A stretch of DNA of 64,000 nucleotides from a phage. The position numbers and the translations under genes were made by a program. The notes below the pieces were generated by a model. It saw only the letters and a list, made by a program, of their open reading frames with translations. It made no database searches and was not told the origin of the DNA. This document shows, one piece after another, positions 44,647 to 54,900 of the stretch (the stretch's first letter is position 1; every line of letters begins with the position of its first letter). Location of the stretch: the NCBI GenBank assembly GCA_033648345.1, contig GCA_033648345.1_4121.1. The stretch is one strand, 5' to 3'.

Positions 44647-45267
44647 ATGAGTATGATTCGTGAATGGTCTTCATTCAATGATTCTAAAGTTGTTTTGGAA
44701 CATCGTGATAATGGACTTGGTGGGCGTGATTGCTATCTTCGTGGTATTGCTATTCAAGCCGATCAAAGAAATTTAAATGAGAGAATTTACCCTTTAGCCG
44801 AAATTACTAAAGCTGTTAATAATATGGCTCAACGTTTGGCTAAAGGTGAAAGTATTCTAGTTGAATGTGACCACCCCGAAACACTAACAATTAACCTTGA
44901 CCGTGTAGCAGCAATGATTACTAAGGTCTGGATGGAAGGTGCTAACGGCATGGCAGAAATCAAACTACTTGATACTGCTCATGGTACTAATATTCGTAAA
45001 ATGCTAGAAGCTGGTGTGAAACTTGGTGTAAGTTCTCGTGGTTCCGGTAACGTGGATTACAATGGAATAGTTTCTGATTTTGAAATTATCACAATTGATA
45101 TTGTTGCTCAACCTAGTGCTCCAGAGGCATACCCTACTGCGGTTTTTGAATCTCTGATGAGTAAGTACGGATCACCTTGTAATAGTCCTAAAAAAATCAC
45201 AGAATCTAAAACAGTAAATAATGTAGATTCTGAAATTTACGATTTTTTCAAGAAATTAAAAGGTTAA
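44647..45267 (+). CDS. Prohead protease candidate (T4 gp21-like by position)
   Basis: 206 aa; conserved His (VECDHPE) and Ser (VSSRGSG) candidates; strong AAAGGAAAGGAG RBS. Confidence 0.5.
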   Translation: MSMIREWSSFNDSKVVLEHRDNGLGGRDCYLRGIAIQADQRNLNERIYPLAEITKAVNNMAQRLAKGESILVECDHPETLTINLDRVAAMITKVWMEGANGMAEIKLLDTAHGTNIRKMLEAGVKLGVSSRGSGNVDYNGIVSDFEIITIDIVAQPSAPEAYPTAVFESLMSKYGSPCNSPKKITESKTVNNVDSEIYDFFKKLKG

Positions 45268-45333
45268 CATTTTAAAAATATAAATATTTGTATGTTGAAG
45301 TACAGATATTTCAGTACTTAAAGGAGAGAACGA

Positions 45334-46449
45334 ATGTCTAAATTAGAAAAGCTTCTAAAAGAATCATCTCTTTCTGATGAGGCAAAACAGCTAATTCAGG
45401 AAGCATGGAATGAAGAAAAAAACACACTTGCCGCAGAAATGCGTGAAGAAATGAAAGGCCGCTACAAACAAGATTTGTCTGAGCTAACCGAAGGTCTAAA
45501 TACTATGGTTACTCAAGTTATCGCTGAAGAAATGGGTGCAGTATATGAAGAGAAAAAACGTCTTGTAGAAGATCGTGTAACTCTCCGCAAAACCCTAAGT
45601 AATTTCTCTGCGTTTTCTAACTCTGTTTTGGCTGAAGAAGTTAAACAAATGCGTAAAGAACGTAAGCATCTTCAAGAATGCATGGGTAAATTCGTTAATT
45701 TCTCTAACGGTATCCTAGCAGAAGAGCTAAAAGAATTCCACATCGAGAAACGTCAACTAGTTGAAACTCGCGTTAAACTACTAGCTGAAGGCTCCCGTCA
45801 AATTGCTGAAGCACGTAACAACTTCATCAAACGTACATCTGAAAGTGCTGCTAAATATATTGCAGAAACTACTCAGAAAAACCTATACGCTTTGAAAGAA
45901 GATCTTGTTGAAGCAAAACAAAATATGTTTGGTCGTAAAATCTTTGAAGCATTTGCTCAAGAGTTTAATGTCAAACAATTTAATGAGAATTCACTACTAC
46001 GTTCCCTAACTGAATCAATCAAGTCTAAAGAAGACGAAATTGCTCAAGTTAAGAAAGAACTAAATGAAACTGTAAGTGAAGTTAAAGCTGCTAAAACCAA
46101 ACTACGTATTATGGAAGATTCACAAGCTCGTAATGCGATTATGTCTGAACTAGTTAAGCCACTAACTACACAACAGAAACAAATTATGGAATCCCTTCTA
46201 GCTACTTCTCCTACAGAAAAGCTTAAAGACGATTTCAGCAAGTACCATAAGTCAGTACTTAACGGTACTAAAGTAAATGAATCTGCTACCACTCGTCAAG
46301 CAGTTCAGTCTTCCGCTAAGAGAACTCTTGCAGAAGGTAAAGTAATCACTGGCAACCGTCAGGCTATTGTTGAAAGCGAAGAAATGACCGCTGACGATAT
46401 GGCATTCCTAAAAGAACTCGATGTTCTTTCTGGTATCAATAAAAAATAA
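45334..46449 (+). CDS. Scaffold protein candidate (T4 gp22-like by position)
   Basis: 371 aa, charged coiled-coil-like composition; AAAGGAGAG RBS; directly upstream of the capsid gene. Confidence 0.5.
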   Translation: MSKLEKLLKESSLSDEAKQLIQEAWNEEKNTLAAEMREEMKGRYKQDLSELTEGLNTMVTQVIAEEMGAVYEEKKRLVEDRVTLRKTLSNFSAFSNSVLAEEVKQMRKERKHLQECMGKFVNFSNGILAEELKEFHIEKRQLVETRVKLLAEGSRQIAEARNNFIKRTSESAAKYIAETTQKNLYALKEDLVEAKQNMFGRKIFEAFAQEFNVKQFNENSLLRSLTESIKSKEDEIAQVKKELNETVSEVKAAKTKLRIMEDSQARNAIMSELVKPLTTQQKQIMESLLATSPTEKLKDDFSKYHKSVLNGTKVNESATTRQAVQSSAKRTLAEGKVITGNRQAIVESEEMTADDMAFLKELDVLSGINKK

Positions 46450-46472
46450 ACATTTTAAAGCATTTTAATAAT

Positions 46473-46505
46473 CAAATTTTTCAGTTCTATAAATAATATC
46501 ATACT
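46473..46505 (+). promoter_or_regulatory. Late promoter with exact T4-type TATAAATA box
   Basis: TATAAATA at 46488-46495, 45 nt upstream of the capsid ATG, inside a block shared with 43721-43751. Confidence 0.5.
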
Positions 46506-46539
46506 GAAAAACGAATATAACATCTTTAAGGAGATAATA

Positions 46540-47715
46540 ATGTCACAACTACTAAATGAATCCAAATGGGTAGCAGTTAAAGAGAAACTAGTTGAAGGTC
46601 TACAAGGTACTCGTAAGTCCGTAATGGAAACCGTACTTGATAACCATCGTAAACTAATGCTAAACGAATCTGCTACTTCTGGTGCAACCACCGCTGGTAA
46701 CATCGCTACTCTAAACAAAGTGATTCTACCAATTATGCGTCGTGTTATGCCAACCGTAATCGCTAACGAAATCATCGGTGTTCAGCCAATGACTGGCCCA
46801 GTTGGTCAGATCCACACCCTACGTGTTCAATATGCTGACAACGCTCCTGGTGTTATCGCTGGTGAAGAAATGCTTTCTCCATACAAAATCGCTAAGTCTT
46901 ATACTGGTGACCTAAACGCAGACAACAGCAACCCACAAGCTGCTCCTACTAGCCAACTAGAAGGTACTATGGGTCGTCGCGTTAACATCCGTATTCTACG
47001 TGAAACTGTTGAAGCGAAATCTCGTCGTCTATCTGCACGTTGGACTGTTGAATCTGCACAAGATGCACAATCCCAACATGGTATCGACGTTGAAGCTGAA
47101 CTAATGGCTGCAATCGCTCAAGAAGTTACCGTTGAAATCGACCAAGAGCTACTAAGCCGTCTACGTGCACTACCTGGTGCTGCTGCTGTAACTTATGACC
47201 AATCTAAAGTTACTGGTGTTGCGACCTTCGTTGGTGACGAGCACGCTGCTCTAGCTACCCTAATCAACCGTCAAGCGAACGAAGTTGCTCGTCGTACCAA
47301 ACGTGGTGCTGCGAACTGGGCTGTTGTTTCTCCAACCGCTCTAACCATTCTACAGTCTGCAACTACTTCTAGTTTTGCACGTACTACTGAAGGTACTTTC
47401 GAAGCTCCAACTAACGTTAAATTTGTTGGTACTCTAAACAGCACCATGCGTATCTTCGTTGATACCTATGCAAGTGATGTTGAAGATATCCTAATTGGTT
47501 ACAAAGGTAACGCTGAAACTGATGCTGGTGTGTTCTATTGCCCATACATCCCACTAATGGCTTCCGGTACTGTAATGGACCCTAACACTGGAGAACTCGT
47601 TACAACTTTCTTAACCAGATACGGGTATGTTCAGTTGACCGATAGCACCAGTTCACTAGGTAACGCTGCTGACTACTACAGTAAAATCGCTATCAAAAAC
47701 GTTACTTTCATGTAA
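46540..47715 (+). CDS. Major capsid protein (T4 gp23 family)
   Basis: IMRRVMPTVIANEIIGVQPMTGPVGQ, EAKSRRLSARWTVESAQD and GYKGNAETDAGVFYCPYIPL match gp23 blocks from memory; 391 aa. Confidence 0.85.
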   Translation: MSQLLNESKWVAVKEKLVEGLQGTRKSVMETVLDNHRKLMLNESATSGATTAGNIATLNKVILPIMRRVMPTVIANEIIGVQPMTGPVGQIHTLRVQYADNAPGVIAGEEMLSPYKIAKSYTGDLNADNSNPQAAPTSQLEGTMGRRVNIRILRETVEAKSRRLSARWTVESAQDAQSQHGIDVEAELMAAIAQEVTVEIDQELLSRLRALPGAAAVTYDQSKVTGVATFVGDEHAALATLINRQANEVARRTKRGAANWAVVSPTALTILQSATTSSFARTTEGTFEAPTNVKFVGTLNSTMRIFVDTYASDVEDILIGYKGNAETDAGVFYCPYIPLMASGTVMDPNTGELVTTFLTRYGYVQLTDSTSSLGNAADYYSKIAIKNVTFM

Positions 47716-47738
47716 TAATAAAGAATTTAAATATACTA

Positions 47739-47768
47739 GGGACTCTTCGGAGTCCCTTTTCTTTTTTC
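47739..47768 (+). terminator. Intrinsic terminator after the capsid gene (UUCG tetraloop)
   Basis: GGGACUC-UUCG-GAGUCCC followed by a U-rich run. Confidence 0.65.
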
Positions 47769-47779
47769 AGAAAAAAAGC

Positions 47780-47808
47780 TTGACAAGTAGATTTTAATTA
47801 TATATAAT
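47780..47808 (+). promoter_or_regulatory. Consensus sigma70 promoter
   Basis: TTGACA (47780-47785), 17-nt spacer, TATAAT (47803-47808). Confidence 0.6.
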
Positions 47809-47843
47809 TACCACATACCAAAAATCACAAAGAGACAAATAAA

Positions 47844-48950
47844 ATGCCAAAAGTAAGTATCGACAAAGAAAAATTCATTGAAGAGATGAACAACAAGTAT
47901 GGAGCATATGGTGAATTTGATTTCAGCACTTTAGTATTCAAAGCCAGTAAGACAACAGTTAAATGTAATAAATGCGGAAAAGAAAATACTAAACCTGCAC
48001 TACGTCACATTTCATGTACATGTTCTTCATGTTATTCAAACATGTCACAGCGTTCGAACAACGAAAAATTTATCAGCACGGTAGAAACTAAATTTGGAAA
48101 AGATAAATTCAAATTTGATAAACTAAATTACATTAACGCTATAACAAAAGTAACCATACTCTGCACAGACGAAGAACATAACGATTACTTTGAAATTACA
48201 CCAAACAAATTTCTTACTGGTAAGGGATGTCCTATATGTAATAAAAATGAAGCATACAGTACTGAAGAATTCGTAGAAAAAGTAAAAGAAAATTATGGTG
48301 ATTCATTAGATTTAACTAACACAGTATATGTAAATCAAAAAACTAAAGTAACTGTGTATTGTAAAGCGGGTAACCATGAATGGACAGTTGATCCGAAAAC
48401 TTTACTTGTTGGTAAGACTGGTTGTGGTACATGCTCCGGTAAAGGTGGTCGCAGTACTGAACGTTTCATTGAACTGGTATCACCTATCCATAACCATAAG
48501 TATGATTATAGTTTGGTTGAATATACTATAAGCGAGAATTATGTTGATATTGTATGTCCAACTCATGGTGTTTTCTCCCAACAACCAAAAGCACATATGG
48601 CTGGTAAAGGATGCCCATCATGTGGTGAATATGGATATCAGCCATCAAAACCTGGATATTTCTATGTTCAAAAACTAACTAATAAAGATAAGACAGTGTA
48701 CAAGTATGGAATCACTGGTGATATGAAACGCCGTGTAAATGAGCAAAGTCGTCATTCTGGTTTTGAACACACAGTACTGATAGAACGTTACTTTGAAGAT
48801 GGAAATCAACCATTACTGTTGGAAAAGTTCATAAAGAAATACATTGAAAGTGGTGTTGTAAGTACTGAAGAGTTGCCATCAGGATTTACTGAAACTTTTG
48901 ATGCTAAGTATCTTGAAAGTGTTTTAGAAATTGTAAATACTTTTAAGTAA
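47844..48950 (+). CDS. Protein with tandem zinc-ribbon repeats plus C-terminal T5orf172 (GIY-YIG superfamily) domain
   Basis: Three to four ~60-aa repeats each ending GKGCPxC / GCGTC with paired Cys; C-terminal GYFYVQK...YKYGITGDMKRRVNE block matches the T5orf172 pattern. Confidence 0.6.
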   Translation: MPKVSIDKEKFIEEMNNKYGAYGEFDFSTLVFKASKTTVKCNKCGKENTKPALRHISCTCSSCYSNMSQRSNNEKFISTVETKFGKDKFKFDKLNYINAITKVTILCTDEEHNDYFEITPNKFLTGKGCPICNKNEAYSTEEFVEKVKENYGDSLDLTNTVYVNQKTKVTVYCKAGNHEWTVDPKTLLVGKTGCGTCSGKGGRSTERFIELVSPIHNHKYDYSLVEYTISENYVDIVCPTHGVFSQQPKAHMAGKGCPSCGEYGYQPSKPGYFYVQKLTNKDKTVYKYGITGDMKRRVNEQSRHSGFEHTVLIERYFEDGNQPLLLEKFIKKYIESGVVSTEELPSGFTETFDAKYLESVLEIVNTFK

Positions 48951-48973
48951 ACAACCATAAGGAGTTGACACGG

Positions 48974-49324
48974 ATGTTAACTGTATACATTTTTAAGAAA
49001 GAAGAGTACTTAAAGAGTCAGTACTCAAAAATTGAGATTAACGTTCCATACGGGACTTTAGTTGGTTATGATGAAGCTAGTGAAACTTTGTATTATAATG
49101 ATGATAGACTGGACTATAGTATTGATTCATTTATTGAAGACATACTTAATAGTAACACTGAAGATATGTTGTATGAAGAATACTTAGATAAGTACAAAGA
49201 ACGTATGTCAAAGTTACATGCTGATGCTCCAGTACTGAACATTTCAAAAACTCCTTCTGAATTCGAGCCACAAAACCCATTCCAACGCCTAATTGATGCT
49301 GGGGTAAATTTCCGAATTACTTGA
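48974..49324 (+). CDS. Hypothetical protein
   Basis: Track start TTG 48965; ATG 48974 with AAGGAG RBS; 116 aa. Confidence 0.45.
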   Translation: MLTVYIFKKEEYLKSQYSKIEINVPYGTLVGYDEASETLYYNDDRLDYSIDSFIEDILNSNTEDMLYEEYLDKYKERMSKLHADAPVLNISKTPSEFEPQNPFQRLIDAGVNFRIT

Positions 49325-49363
49325 TTAATAAATATCTTCATATTACTGATGGAGATATTTTCT

Positions 49364-49672
49364 ATGTCACAGATATGTTATGTTATAGTAAATGATGCAT
49401 GGCCTGATTATGTTAAGATAGGATTTACCAGTAAATCTGAAATGACAGAACGTTTAAGGACATATCAAACTGCTACACCTTTTAGAGATTTTGTGGTATA
49501 CCATGAAGTACACTTTGAAGATGCACGTTTAGCAGAGAAAGAAATTCACAAAAGACTAAAACAAATGAACGCAGTAAGGCAACCTAACACCGAGTGGTTC
49601 AAGATGCCTAAGAAGATAGCAGCGAACATCGTTGATTCTGTTCTTGACGATATGGAAAACGACTTGCTATAG
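49364..49672 (+). CDS. T5orf172 (GIY-YIG superfamily) domain protein
   Basis: CYVIVNDAWPDYVKIGFTS...ERLRTYQTATPF...EWFK pattern; ATG 49364 with GGAGA RBS preferred over 49349. Confidence 0.6.
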   Translation: MSQICYVIVNDAWPDYVKIGFTSKSEMTERLRTYQTATPFRDFVVYHEVHFEDARLAEKEIHKRLKQMNAVRQPNTEWFKMPKKIAANIVDSVLDDMENDLL

Positions 49673-49713
49673 TAATAAATATAGTATATATTAATCATTA
49701 AAGGGATTTATAC

Positions 49714-51426
49714 ATGAGCATAAGTTTTAATAACCCACTGGATACTATGACTAGTACTGGTGCTAATGGATCTTTAGAACTAATAGTGCTTGGTGGTACA
49801 CCAACTAATCCAAGACCTATTCGTTTTAATTCATCTTCTGTCATTTTACCAGTACAGGCATTGCCAGCAGGTGAGCAAGGTGCTATGGTATTTGATAGAA
49901 ATGAGTTGGTGTTAAAATACCACAACGGGACAAGTTGGATTGCAGTATACGATACTGATACAATTCTTGAACCAATCCGTATTTCACTCGATGAAGTGAA
50001 CCGTAAACTGAATTTAAAAGTTGAAACAGTAACATATAGTAGTAGTGCTGTTCCAAGTGCGAGCATTAGTGGTACGAATTTAAATATCGTATTCCCTACT
50101 CCATCAAGTAGCGGTAGTGGCCCAACAGGTCTTTACACTTCAATGAAGCCTGGTGCAATTACCCAGTACTCATTGACTTCTGGACAAACTGTTGCTAGTA
50201 TTCGTGAACAGATGTCTGGAGTAACTAATGGTCAAAGTGGTCGTAATGGTACACAAGGTTCTCCGTGGAAAACTTCTGATGGTTGGTGTTTTGCTGATGG
50301 AATGTGGTGGCAATGGGTTGGTGAAAATGGTACAATCACTAAACAAGTTCCAAATCTTAACCAAGAAGCATACTTGAAAGGCATTACCACATCAGGCGTA
50401 ACTAAAACTGATAGTGTGATTGCAAGTAGTGCATCAATTAGTGGTACTGCGATATCAATTGCTCAACTTCCACCGCACTCATTTAGTTTCAGTGGAACTA
50501 CTGGTGCTGCTGGTCGTCATGGTCATAGCCAAGCACTAAAAGGTATGGACAGAAGTGGTCTTAATGCGTTAACATCCAGTAACGACAACGGAATCCCAAC
50601 TGTAATTAATAACATTAACGAAGCACCTGATCACGTGCATAGTTTCAGTGGTTCTACGAATACTGTTGGTAGTGGTCAAGCACACAGCCACGGAATTAGC
50701 AATATTGACGTACCACACTTTAATGTGGCATACTTATATAACATTGCAGAGTCTAACGTTGCATTGAGTGAAAAAGTTGCAAACACCCGTTATGTACTGA
50801 AAACTGGTGATACAATGTCTGGTTCATTGACTATTGCTAACAGTGCAACAATTCGTTCGAATGATACTTCATTAGTACTTTACTTCCGTAACGCTACTAA
50901 TGGTGAACGTGCAGCAATTTATCATAATTCATCTAACAATACATTACGTTTGAGAAGTAATGGTGGTTCTGAAGTTTCTATCAACTCTTCAGGTGTACTA
51001 ACTTCCCCATCGTTAGTTGTTAGTTCTAACTCTGCAACAGTTTCTGGTAAAAACATTGTACGTTCAGTTAACGGTACTGCGGCAGATGCAAGTGGTAATG
51101 TAACTATATCTACCACAACAACTTCTGCGTCATTGACACAAAATGGCTGGCATAAAGATAACAATACTGGTATGATTACCCAGTGGGGATACTTAACTGT
51201 TGGTGACGACTCTTATGTTACTGTAAACTTACCAGTTGCATATCCTAATGCTTGTTTAAATCTACAAGTAACTGGTAGAGTATCCAGAGCACCAGGTAAC
51301 CGTACTTCATTTGCTGGTCATGGTAACATTTTAAGTAACTCACAAATTGCTGTTGGTGCAGCTAACCCTGGTAGTGACGGTGACCACAATGGGCTAGGAG
51401 TGTACTGGACAACAATTGGTTATTAA
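49714..51426 (+). CDS. Tail fiber protein with His-rich HxH motifs
   Basis: 570 aa, Ser/Thr/Gly-rich; HGHSQ and HVHSFSGSTNTVGSGQAHSHGISN resemble metal-binding HxH motifs of T4-type fiber tips; AAAGGGA RBS. Confidence 0.6.
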   Translation: MSISFNNPLDTMTSTGANGSLELIVLGGTPTNPRPIRFNSSSVILPVQALPAGEQGAMVFDRNELVLKYHNGTSWIAVYDTDTILEPIRISLDEVNRKLNLKVETVTYSSSAVPSASISGTNLNIVFPTPSSSGSGPTGLYTSMKPGAITQYSLTSGQTVASIREQMSGVTNGQSGRNGTQGSPWKTSDGWCFADGMWWQWVGENGTITKQVPNLNQEAYLKGITTSGVTKTDSVIASSASISGTAISIAQLPPHSFSFSGTTGAAGRHGHSQALKGMDRSGLNALTSSNDNGIPTVINNINEAPDHVHSFSGSTNTVGSGQAHSHGISNIDVPHFNVAYLYNIAESNVALSEKVANTRYVLKTGDTMSGSLTIANSATIRSNDTSLVLYFRNATNGERAAIYHNSSNNTLRLRSNGGSEVSINSSGVLTSPSLVVSSNSATVSGKNIVRSVNGTAADASGNVTISTTTTSASLTQNGWHKDNNTGMITQWGYLTVGDDSYVTVNLPVAYPNACLNLQVTGRVSRAPGNRTSFAGHGNILSNSQIAVGAANPGSDGDHNGLGVYWTTIGY

Positions 51427-51433
51427 AAAATAT

Positions 51434-51462
51434 TGAGACAACTTTTAAAGTAGTGATACAAT
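51434..51462 (+). promoter_or_regulatory. Promoter of the early family
   Basis: TGAGAC, 17-nt spacer ending TGA, TACAAT; upstream context AAAATATTGAGACAA mirrors 55375-55390. Confidence 0.4.
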
Positions 51463-51523
51463 GTAGTCATCTTACAGCGGTTGTGAGATGACATTTTTTC
51501 AAAACACATGGAGAAGCAAACAA

Positions 51524-51829
51524 ATGGCAAAAGCTAAAAAAGAAGTTAAAGTTGAAATTCGTGACCTAAATGATGAACAACGTAAACGTCTAGGTGATGC
51601 ACTAAACAACGCAGTAGTACAACTTACTTTTATTGACGACACCAAAGCATCCTATGCAGATTTCATTAGTTCCATCTCTGATGAACTAGGTATTGATGCA
51701 TCCGATATCAAACAAGCCGCTCAACGTATCTACAAAGGCGATTACTTTGATAAACAAAACAAACTCGATAACATCGAAACTATCCTAAGTGTTACTAACA
51801 ATTTACCACAAGCAGATGACGATTACTAA
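51524..51829 (+). CDS. Hypothetical protein
   Basis: ATG 51524 with GGAGAAG RBS (track start 51488 has none); followed by a hairpin/T-run. Confidence 0.45.
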   Translation: MAKAKKEVKVEIRDLNDEQRKRLGDALNNAVVQLTFIDDTKASYADFISSISDELGIDASDIKQAAQRIYKGDYFDKQNKLDNIETILSVTNNLPQADDDY

Positions 51830-51911
51830 TAAGTACTAAAAACTAAACTTTATAGCCTCCAATGAATGGGGGCTTTATTTTTAACTTAATAAACGTAAAG
51901 GAATACAAACG

Positions 51912-54900
51912 ATGTATATCGATGCTTATATGGAACGTAAACGTACTGGTGATATTTTGCACGTAGCAGAACGTAAAAACGGTAAACGTATTCTACGTCA
52001 GTTGGACCCAGTATATGAATATTATGTTGAATCTCCTACTGGTGAACACAAAACAATTTATGGAACCAACGCAAAGCATTTGGAGTTTGAAACTCAATCA
52101 CAGATGAATAAAAGCGTTGAGCAACATAAAAATGAAGGTCTACGTATTTTTGAAAGTGATTGCAACATTACCTTCAAAACGTTGGCTAGAGAATACATGG
52201 GTAAAGGTTCGCCGGATTTGAACGTAGCATTTTTCGATATCGAAACCGACTTCCATAAGAAGTTTGGTTATGCTCCACCATCAGATCCATTCAACCGTGT
52301 AACTGCAATTTCTCTATATCAATCATGGACTGGTAAGGATTATGTACTTACTTTGCCACCAACTGATATGGAAATGTACGAAGCACAAGATATTGTTCGA
52401 CAGTTAAACGAAGAAACTAACGACCCTAACAGTACTGTCATCCTTTATACGGATGAGAAAGAAATGTTTATGGAGTTCTTTAGTCTAATCGATGACTCTG
52501 ATGTAATTTCAGGTTGGAACAGTGAATTCTTTGATATTCCATATATGGTAAACCGTACCAAGAAAATCTTCAACGAAGCAACTACTGCTCGTTGGTGTTT
52601 GTGGAATAAAAAACCAAATGCTCGTGAAGCTGATAACTTTGGTAAAACTGTAGTAACATATGATCTTATTGGTCGCGTACACTTAGACTATCTTGCTCTT
52701 TATAAGAAACATGCTGGTCAAGTTGAACAGTCGTACAAACTAGATTATATTGCTGAAAAAGTAACTAAAGAAAACAAAGTATCCTATGAAGGTTCATTGG
52801 ATAAACTATACCGTGAAGATTACATTACATTCTTGCGTTATTCTAAGCAGGATAGTATTCTTCTAAAGAAAATTGATGCTAAATGTGACTTTATCAACCT
52901 GCACAACCGTCTTGCTCATAAAGAATGTGTACTAATTAGTACTACAATGGGTTCGGTTGCACTAATCGACACTGCTATCATCAACCTTGCTCACAGTCGC
53001 GGTGAAGTTGTTTTTAACAAAGCACCGAAGGATGATTTTGAGTTAGATCCAGAGATGGAGTACTATGGTGAAGAAGGTGATGAAGAAGATGAGAAAATCA
53101 GTGCAAAAGCTGCTGGTGCATGGGTTCAAGATCCAGTTCTTGGCCTTGTTAGCGATTTGGGATGTACAGACTTTAACTCATTGTATCCAACTGTACTACG
53201 TACACTTGGCATGAGTACTGAATGTATTCTTGGACAACTTCGTCAAGACTACACTGATGCATATCTTGCTGCTAAAGTACAAGAGCAAAAAGCTAAATCC
53301 AAATCTAAAGCGTTTGAACCTGATTGGACCGCTGCATGGCATGGTTTATTTGCTGCTGTAGAATTTACAATGGTTCATGAAAAATCTGACAAAACTTTGA
53401 TTGTTGATTTAGAAGATGGTAGTTCGTTCAATGCAACTGGTAAAGAATTGTATGATATTATCTTTGCTGAAGACAGTACTATTGTACTAAGTGCTAACGG
53501 AACACTTTTTGATAAGTCTAAGTATGGTGTAATTCCAGATATTCTTACTCAATGGTATTCTGAGCGTAAAGCACAACAAAAAATGGTAATCGACTACAAA
53601 CACATGTACAGTGATGGGTGGGAATTCAATGGTTCTGAGAAGGTTGAACCTTTGCTATCTAACTACACAAGTGGTACAATGTTCCGTACAAACTTACATG
53701 ACAATGATCCTGTTTACCTATTACGTATTGCTATTGGTAAAGGTCAATGGGAAGAAGTTGCAAAACTCATTGTGGAAAATGGTTTAGTACTGAAAGATGG
53801 TCGTATTTTCTGTGCAACGGAAGATAAGAATTACTTCAAACAGCAAAGTGCATTCTGGAAACAGAACCAGCAAATTCGTAAGATTCTTCTAAACAGTCTA
53901 TATGGTGCACTATTGAACAAAGGTTCACGTTTCTTTGATAAGCGTTTAGGTCAGTCCGTTACCTTAACTGGTCGTTCTATGACTAAACATATGGCAAGCC
54001 GTATCAATGAAATCACTACTGGTGTTTATAATCACCAAGGTGGCTCTGTAATTTACGGTGATACTGACTCCGTTTACTTCAGTGTAACTCATTACCTGAA
54101 AGAACAAGGTATTCCATATAATCTTTCGAAAGAAGAAATCGTTGACATGTATATCAAAATCGGTGATGAAGTTGGTGAATCATTCCCTTCATTCATGAAC
54201 GAAATGTTCAATACTGGTATTGAGAAAGGTAAGATTGTTGGTGCAGACCTAGAGATGGTCGGTTCCCGTGGTCTATTCCTGAAGAAAAAGCGTTATGCAA
54301 TTCTCAAGTACTGGGAAGATGGTTTCCGTAAAGATGTTGATGGAAAGCCTGGTGAAATTAAAGCGATGGGTCTTGAAATTAAACGTTCAGATACGCCAAA
54401 ATACATCCAGAACTTCCTAGAAGAGACTCTAATTGCATTGCTGGTGGGTGAGTCTGAAGCTCAACTTAAACAGCGTGTACGTGACTTTAAAGAGGTATTT
54501 AAAGACATGCCTGTACACGAAAAGGGTTCACCGAAAACTGTTAAGAACTATACCAACTTAGAAGCAGAATATGAAGTTTCTGGTAAATGTAAAGTTGGTC
54601 ACGTATTAGCAGGTATTCAATGGAACCGTCTACGTGAAGTATATGATGACAAAACTGTACCTGAAGTAACTGACGGTACAAAAGTAATTGTATGTAACTT
54701 AAAAGATAACCCGATGGGTATCAAAGCAGTAGGTTATCCAATTGACTGTGTGGAATATCTACCTGAATGGTTCTTAGAACTACCATTTGATACAGAGAAA
54801 ATGGAAGAAATAGTTCTAACTAAAAAATTAGAAAACATTTTTGGTATTCTGGATATGGATATTGGTATTCATGAGAAAAGTACAGCAGCCGTTAATAACG

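Follow-up and report, generated by a model that had tools for sequence, protein, structure and literature searches.

Homing endonuclease genes (HEGs) of the T5orf172 type, which belong to the GIY-YIG superfamily, carry repeated CapR, DUF723 or DUF4379 zinc (Zn) fingers in 87% of cases and lie in capsid-gene neighborhoods in 31%; they are further marked by module shuffling and by a location at boundaries of genetic exchange (Barth, Dunham & Seed 2023, PMC10448857). We examined a 64,000-nucleotide stretch of phage DNA (GenBank assembly GCA_033648345.1, contig GCA_033648345.1_4121.1; "the window" hereafter, to whose full length all positions refer), in which three open reading frames (ORF1, ORF2, and ORF3) lie between the major capsid protein (MCP) gene and a tail-fiber gene. 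The source genome is that of an Asteriusvirus (121Q/PBECO4-like), a Rak2-like jumbo coliphage (myovirus) whose nearest relative is BF17; a 5-kb query around the locus was 99.6% identical to BF17, 93.6% to Turkey3, and ~86% to 121Q. Judged from sequence and model evidence, ORF1 and its putative promoter probably constitute a free-standing T5orf172 HEG, lodged in a hot-spot between the capsid terminator and ORF2.

ORF1 resembles the described members of the class (i.e., ICP1 gp121, gp130, gp165, gp174, and others) in its N-terminal Zn array, its C-terminal T5orf172 domain, and its free-standing position by the capsid gene, as well as in the shuffling of modules between alleles and its placement at genetic-exchange boundaries. 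A tblastn search joined it to the ICP1 gene annotated "tcgB putative homing endonuclease". ORF1 is a clear but ordinary example of this class, and its repeat architecture, called unusual in the original prediction made from the sequence of the window, is the published norm of DUF723, DUF4379, and CapR fingers joined to T5orf172 (PMC10448857). It differs from the earlier examples in host lineage, the Asteriusvirus/Rak2-like jumbo coliphages, and the Asteriusvirus slot adds an allelic series (at least five T5orf172 alleles, one unrelated nuclease, and an empty state) that is matched to synonymous haplotypes of the MCP 3' end. Neither 121Q, PBECO4, RaK2, nor the Asteriusvirus locus was found in the supplementary text of that survey as far as it was available (PMC10448857), and the ORF1 locus is not discussed in the fEgEco12 and Sharanji genome papers. 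In 121Q, gp604 is annotated as "endonuclease" and gp606 as "GIY-YIG nuclease family protein", annotations that come with neither a domain analysis nor evidence of mobility nor a target; in most Asteriusvirus records the proteins are "hypothetical".

Two other groups of nucleases invite comparison. In the T4-like Seg proteins (SegA-G) and in I-TevI the nuclease is N-terminal, whereas in ORF1 it is C-terminal; ORF1 also differs from them in nuclease subfamily (T5orf172, with K-x-G in place of Y-I-G), in having four ~64-aa Zn modules for DNA binding rather than NUMOD or helix-turn-helix elements, and in lying outside any intron. The ICP1 protein Odn (Gp88) shares with ORF1 the nuclease domain family and the conserved catalytic Arg and Glu, and is the sole T5orf172 member with biochemical proof of cleavage. 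Odn is directed to a satellite replication origin by its RepA_N domain, and homing is not known for it, whereas ORF1 has Zn-finger modules and a homing-type population pattern. In the literature searched, we found no report of biochemical homing by a Zn-finger T5orf172 enzyme.

Architecture of ORF1 and its putative promoter

ORF1 (positions 47844-48950, plus strand) encodes a 368-aa protein, whose N-terminal 265 residues were resolved by repeat alignment into four tandem repeats of 62-68 aa (aa 6-69, 70-137, 138-203, and 204-265; positions 47859-48638, plus strand). The original prediction had counted three to four such repeats, each ending in GKGCPxC; the number is exactly four, and the ending holds for repeats 2 and 4, while repeat 3 ends in GKTGCGTC and repeat 1 in SCTCSSC. 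All four repeats contain four Zn ligands in a C..C/H...CxxC arrangement (C41/C44/C60/C63 in repeat 1, C107/H112/C129/C132 in repeat 2, C173/H178/C194/C197 in repeat 3, and C238/H241/C257/C260 in repeat 4), and the cysteines of repeats 2-4 are invariant among 45 homologs. When the repeats were scanned singly against Pfam, repeat 4 matched DUF723 with 24.9 bits, over the cut-off of 20.9, while the matches of repeat 3 to DUF4379 (20.3 bits, cut-off 24.5) and of repeat 2 to CapR (17.5 bits, cut-off 24.2) fell under threshold, and repeat 1 gave generic Zn-ribbon matches only; close homologs of ORF1 carry precomputed PF05265 and PF14311 matches. In an AlphaFold2 (AF2) model of the protein, with a predicted local distance difference test score (pLDDT) of 87, a helix plus beta-hairpin unit recurs four times. 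We predict that these modules form a DNA-recognition array. The same array is joined to HNH or Vsr-like nuclease domains in other homologs, which suggests that it serves as a targeting module for nucleases.

The C-terminal domain (aa 266-368; positions 48639-48947, plus strand) scored 17.8-18.4 bits against Pfam T5orf172, just under the cut-off of 20. The assignment of this domain to T5orf172 in the original prediction was confirmed in two ways. In a profile-profile comparison, 48 ORF1 C-terminal domains combined aligned with the ORF3-family profile at 95.5% probability (hhalign, E 1.5e-8); at the level of fold, the best structural matches of the modeled domain are GIY-YIG nucleases, and the model has the GIY-YIG alpha/beta fold. 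Further, ORF1 homologs carry precomputed PF10544 and PF13455 matches, and PHROG 681 ("endonuclease"), which also covers ORF3, matches nearly the full length of ORF1 (E 1.6e-77). The domain contains the motifs GYFY271-274 and YKYG286-289 together with R297, E327, and E350; all of 45 sequences share Y274, K287, G289, E327, and E350, and R297 is almost invariant. By motif, the Arg and Glu correspond to the catalytic residues of Odn, whose cleavage activity is proven and whose E180A mutant is inactive (PMC8263062). Both domains of ORF1 are under purifying selection, with a ratio of nonsynonymous to synonymous substitution rates (dN/dS) of ~0.1 in each; the protein is 100% identical to that of BF17, and its 121Q ortholog, gp604, has 89% aa identity. 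Architecture, fold, conserved residues, and purifying selection are thus observed directly, and from them we infer that the protein cleaves DNA.

Several searches returned nothing: NCBIfam had no match for ORF1, ORF2, or ORF3, a PDB sequence search with the ORF1 family profile gave no meaningful match, and tblastn detected no paralogs of ORF1 or ORF3 elsewhere in the window. Two further kinds of element were considered and rejected. An intron-encoded endonuclease does not fit, as ORF1 is intergenic, the MCP gene is intact and ends 128 nt upstream of ORF1, and positions 46000-52000 have no Rfam match at E<=1. Nor does a transposon-like insertion, as no direct or inverted repeats flank the 47769-49713 stretch.

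Upstream of ORF1, a perfect TTGACA-17-TATAAT sequence lies at 47780-47808 (plus strand). It is the sole 12/12 match in the 12 kb scanned and the sole zero-mismatch match in the window. Near-consensus sigma70 promoters number four in the window against 1.7 expected, an enrichment that is not significant; what speaks for a promoter is therefore the perfect match, where it lies, and the fact that diverged alleles conserve it. Just after the terminator, all ORF1 alleles have a -35/-10-like pair, the sequences of which differ from allele to allele, and the empty sites have none, suggesting that the promoter is part of the ORF1 cassette. The capsid intrinsic terminator itself (47738-47767, plus strand; a stem-loop at 47738-47757 with an 8-bp stem and five G-C pairs, followed by a T run) is kept in all relatives, whether ORF1 is present or absent.

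In Rak2-like relatives, early genes are recognizable by RpoD-type promoters and structural genes by ATAAATA motifs (PMC5259590). In the window, the T4-late-type motif TATAAATA occurs at 45279-45286 and 46488-46495, 45-48 nt upstream of the start codons of the scaffold and MCP genes; these are two of only five such sites in the window, a total not above chance. A second late-type motif, TAATAAATAT, is found at 49326-49335 and 49673-49682, ~30 nt upstream of ORF3 and of the fiber gene. As its neighbors carry these late-type motifs and ORF1 a sigma70-like one, the putative promoter of ORF1 is, by sequence, of a different class from the motifs of the adjoining genes, and the own early-type promoter proposed in the original prediction is upheld to that extent. 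Between ORF1 and position 51466 we found no convincing terminator-like site; all that ORF2 and ORF3 contain is two stem-loops, both short and weak.

Occupancy of the slot and the capsid 3' end

Among the 16 Asteriusvirus loci, the window included, that were read base by base, the variable part of the locus consists of the promoter and ORF1 only. A four-finger allele (365-368 aa) occupies the slot in the window, BF17, A4, Turkey3, WPEC3, 121Q, and SP27 and, as judged by BLAST, also in UB, JP4, ELP-22, phAPEC6, CRJP21, and Ec-M-J. Sharanji and Ecwhy_1 have a three-finger allele (305 aa), and other T5orf172 alleles are present in EC.P1 (300 aa), EJP2 (364 aa), and Turkey5 (406 aa, with a CapR domain). 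The slot of UE-S1 (L011:3448-5106) contains an unrelated 552-aa protein with a DUF7487 match (E 1.8e-12) and a weak REase_MTES_1575 match, which appears to represent a different nuclease family at the same site. Finally, fEgEco12, CMSTMSU, SD-15_S21, and PBECO4 have an empty slot, and the flanks of fEgEco12 are 98-100% identical to those of the window. Presence and absence at this one site are thus sporadic among near relatives. In the CMSTMSU record (L006, MH494197), which is flagged UNVERIFIED_ORG, the MCP, scaffold, and fiber genes are split into many short coding sequences; the record probably contains homopolymer sequencing errors, and its gene calls are therefore unfit for scoring presence or absence beyond the DNA alignment.

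The state of the slot does not follow the phylogeny of its flanks. The MCP body and ORF2-ORF3 define two flank clades, one with the window, BF17, Turkey3, fEgEco12, and Ecwhy_1 and the other with 121Q, Sharanji, and SD-15; ORF2-ORF3 are 99-100% identical inside a clade and 81% across clades. Four-finger, three-finger, and empty states each occur in both clades. ORF1 of the window and that of Turkey3 differ at a dS of 0.62, though the flanks of these two phages differ by 1-2%. The Turkey3 gene is chimeric: its fingers 1-3 are of the four-finger type, while finger 4 and the nuclease domain match the Ecwhy_1 three-finger allele at every one of 497 nt. Beyond Asteriusvirus, the GAP32 slot holds a 77-aa C-terminal remnant of an ORF1-like T5orf172 gene (GAP32_251, L015:4766-4999; phmmer E 2e-11), apparently an endonuclease gene that has decayed at this site in another genus, and the RaK2 slot holds a 408-aa CapR/DUF723 homolog of ORF1. 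Together with the presence of ORF2 and ORF3 in other genera (discussed later), this remnant and this homolog suggest that the slot is an old hot-spot in which ORF2 and ORF3 are old residents.

The discordance extends into the capsid gene. The last ~125 nt of the MCP gene (46540-47715) fall into purely synonymous haplotypes, and the window type tracks the four-finger allele. Compared with fEgEco12, the MCP gene of the window is free of differences over nt 1-1000 but has 19 of them in its final 176 nt (Fisher p 9e-17), although the protein is identical; compared with EC.P1, it has one difference in nt 1-1000 and 31 in the last 176 nt. All of these 3' changes are synonymous, and the last 91 residues are the same in all loci except for EJP2 and three sites. 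When the phages of the collection searched were ranked by their MCP 3' end, the 12 most window-like (89.7-100%) were exactly the 12 four-finger carriers, the others reaching 87.8% at most, and this held in both clades. The window-type haplotype at MCP nt 1053-1143 was present in 12/12 four-finger carriers and in none of about 24 non-carriers. In the window this recoded segment spans 47592-47682 (plus strand), making it the candidate co-conversion tract and the candidate region of recognition and cleavage.

Against its close relatives, the window has 0-3 mismatches per 100 nt on both sides of a sharp-edged divergent block, which begins inside the MCP gene, at ~47450-47592, and runs to about the end of ORF1. 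The source of the block can be approached through A4: window positions 47575-48759 (plus strand), comprising the MCP 3' end, the terminator, the promoter, the four Zn modules, and the first part of the nuclease domain, differ from A4 at six of 1,185 nt (99.5% identity), while the A4 flanks are of the 121Q clade and diverge by 6-10% on the left and 13-26% on the right. This is a recently exchanged block. A deletion of 21 nt travels with it: just after the MCP stop codon (window position 47716), the window, BF17, and A4 are without a segment, TTGTAATNGATTTAAAAGATT, that is present in all other relatives, and the same three differ in ~14 nt ahead of the terminator stem. As far as sequence comparison goes, the haplotypes and the block fit homing with co-conversion. 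The claim of a selfish, homing-endonuclease-like insertion was thereby borne out for ORF1, which is present, absent, or replaced in near-identical relatives, is discordant with its flanks, and was co-transferred with capsid sequence. Presence and absence, discordant phylogeny, and the transferred block are direct observations.

A mechanism that would account for these observations can be proposed. ORF1 would be transcribed from its own host-type (early) promoter, and its four Zn modules would recognize an extended DNA sequence in a co-infecting relative without the four-finger allele, most plausibly one in the final ~125 nt of the MCP gene, within the recoded stretch at nt ~1053-1143. The C-terminal GIY-YIG-fold domain would cut at this target, and recombinational repair from the HEG-bearing genome would copy the cassette, promoter included, into the cut genome along with the terminator and the MCP 3' end. 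Synonymous recoding of the MCP 3' end may protect the carrier from its own nuclease. Over time, rival alleles and other nucleases would replace one another at the slot, and Zn and nuclease modules would be shuffled among alleles. Promoter activity, the target site, and immunity by recoding are, like cleavage, steps that we infer.

Some of the data weigh against an interpretation of ORF1 as a homing endonuclease. The T5orf172 allele of EC.P1 and the unrelated nuclease of UE-S1 lie beside one common MCP 3' haplotype, as do the three-finger allele and the empty sites, and the four-finger carriers SP27 and phAPEC6 have a haplotype that is only partly window-like. Relatives beyond the 16 loci were classed from BLAST identities. 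Similar blocks could also come from ordinary homologous recombination in the conserved flanks, with no break made by a nuclease. Last, we found no published nuclease assay, cleavage-site mapping, or co-infection cross for ORF1 or for any Zn-finger T5orf172 HEG.

A bolder proposal, which we regard as rather doubtful, is that the MCP 3' end is a natural "matched set", in which at least five Zn-array alleles and an unrelated nuclease vie for a slot beside distinct synonymous recodings of the last ~40 codons, and from which a modular DNA recognition code could be read. The alleles hold three, four, or more modules, which have been shuffled one by one. The window-type recoding tracks the four-finger allele, and the other recodings are common to several occupants.

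Alternative roles of ORF1 and the status of ORF2 and ORF3

ORF1 might instead be first of all a weapon, aimed at competing phages, at satellites, or at host DNA, much as Odn acts against PLE satellites, with its spread a by-product. The T5orf172 nuclease Odn does act in this manner, an early-type promoter would suit an anti-competitor role, and the domain of ORF3 is found in the candidate defense proteins PDC-S57 and PD-Lambda-1. We nevertheless consider this explanation unlikely: co-conversion close to the target and the replacement of one allele by another at a single fixed site are what homing or marker exclusion leaves behind, and ORF1 contains no satellite-derived binding domain such as RepA_N. 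The weapon and homing roles are not mutually exclusive.

Quite unlikely, in our estimation, is a domesticated, non-cutting DNA-binding regulator that tunes capsid or downstream expression, with the variability of the locus due to ordinary recombination. The precedent for such a role is CapR, a satellite protein that stems from just this kind of Zn-finger module, binds a capsid promoter, and represses a capsid operon (PMC8096241); among modules of this kind, CapR is the only case in the literature where sequence-specific DNA binding is demonstrated. ORF1 is built from the same kind of module, adjoins the capsid gene, and has in repeat 2 a weak CapR-domain match, and the purifying selection on it would suit any functional protein. 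Against this role, ORF1 has kept its nuclease domain, with conserved Arg and Glu and a dN/dS as low as that of the fingers. Further, ORF1 is dispensable, given the empty slots of viable isolates, an unrelated nuclease takes its place in UE-S1, and a transferred block with synonymous recoding of the capsid 3' end is what a cutter predicts.

The original prediction had treated the whole of 47769-49713 (ORF1, ORF2, and ORF3) as one accessory island or moron between the capsid and fiber genes, an idea favored by the three genes between two structural genes, their lower G+C content (33-37%, versus 45% in the capsid gene), and the T5orf172 domains in two of the three. It is nevertheless very improbable: ORF2 and ORF3 accompany filled and empty slots alike in all relatives examined (and both occur in GAP32 and XaC1 as well, with ORF2 alone in RaK2), their divergence follows the flank clades (81% versus 99-100%), no capsid-fiber junction without them was found among the relatives examined, and no inverted or direct repeats bound the stretch. 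What survives of that prediction is ORF1 as a selfish T5orf172 gene; the terminator, the consensus promoter, and the three reading frames between the capsid and fiber genes also lie exactly where it had placed them. Moron is a poor label for the element, as the lineage of jumbo myoviruses to which this phage belongs is virulent and there is no sign of host benefit; in addition, ORF1 has a promoter but no convincing terminator after it, and its predicted product is a nuclease from a class of selfish elements.

ORF2 (48974-49324, plus strand; 116 aa) and ORF3 (49364-49672, plus strand) are, on comparative sequence evidence, conserved residents outside the mobile cassette. Both are present in 16/16 Asteriusvirus loci, empty-slot phages included, and it is this synteny, with their presence in other genera, that separates them from ORF1. 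ORF2 homologs follow the MCP gene in RaK2 (E 3e-36), GAP32, and XaC1, and ORF3 orthologs directly precede the fiber gene in GAP32 (E 6e-51) and XaC1; in RaK2, which has kept ORF2 but not ORF3, a 244-aa gene takes that place. The two genes are under purifying selection (dN/dS 0.06-0.29, with 0.06 for ORF3 versus 121Q), and in 5.8 billion proteins their families form 13 (ORF2) and 25 (ORF3) clusters. ORF2, an unknown ORF in the original prediction, matches no Pfam family, and its AF2 model is weak (pLDDT 66), with low-Z SH3-like matches only.

ORF3, of which the 121Q ortholog is gp606, is 102 aa long with the start annotated in relatives, or 107 aa from an upstream ATG. It is the stand-alone T5orf172 protein of the original prediction (Pfam E 3e-13, 50.6 bits versus a cut-off of 20), and it also matches MUG113 (E 1e-12). 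Its putative catalytic residues are R30/R32 and E77, the latter in a TEWF motif that hhalign aligned to TETF of ORF1. We regard ORF3 as an anciently fixed, possibly domesticated nuclease domain. A search with PADLOC gave domain-level matches only for ORF3, to the N-terminal domain of PDC-S57 (E 1.9e-15) and, weakly, to PD-Lambda-1, and no defense-system assignment; the PDC-S57 match indicates that bacterial anti-phage candidates, too, make use of this small nuclease domain. We rejected the idea that ORF2 and ORF3 are the halves of a split, decayed HEG, because ORF2 homologs are never joined to a nuclease domain in any of the 13 clusters, because RaK2 has ORF2 without ORF3, and because both genes are under purifying selection. 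The ORF2 homologs are all about 116-120 aa apart from one 68-aa fragment, which comes from the frameshift-ridden CMSTMSU record.

Neighboring genes and implications for Asteriusvirus

Upstream of the locus, the capsid region comprises genes for a prohead protease (44647-45267), a scaffold-like protein (45334-46449), and the gp23-like MCP (Pfam Gp23, E 9.5e-90). Downstream, the tail-fiber gene (49714-51426) is followed by a small ORF and then by the DNA polymerase gene. Within 49714-51487 of the window, the fiber gene encodes 570 aa with a Gp53-like C-terminal domain and is without a downstream tail-fiber-assembly gene, as is that of Turkey3; BF17, 121Q, fEgEco12, and others have a 536-542-aa fiber and an assembly protein of ~172 aa. 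As the window is otherwise BF17-like, the 3' end of the fiber gene looks like a second swapped cassette (a host-range module). Between the fiber and DNA polymerase genes lies a conserved 113-aa ORF (51488-51829; annotated at ~101 aa), which matches PHROG 12534 (E 2e-45) and, weakly, the "transcriptional regulator" PHROG 639 (E 2e-7); ahead of it come a 10/12 promoter-like site (51433-51462) and a stem-loop (51466-51492).

For the annotation of Asteriusvirus genomes, the analysis allows the "hypothetical protein" orthologs of ORF1 to be named T5orf172-type homing endonucleases, with ORF2 and ORF3 kept apart from them. The locus also accounts for the mosaic 3' end of an otherwise near-identical capsid gene, a point of importance when the phylogeny of these jumbo phages, which are candidates for therapy, is built on that gene. 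The natural pairs of phages with and without the HEG, with flanks 98-100% identical, constitute a convenient E. coli system for an enzyme class whose homing, recognition of targets through tandem DUF723-type fingers, and immunity by synonymous recoding have so far been deduced by bioinformatics only. If each module reads a defined stretch of DNA, the allele series could reveal the modular recognition code of a little-studied class of Zn fingers, one for which sequence searches detect no structure. If the MCP 3' end is indeed a matched set of alleles and recodings, the Asteriusvirus slot would offer a tractable coliphage system for the first direct proof of T5orf172 homing.

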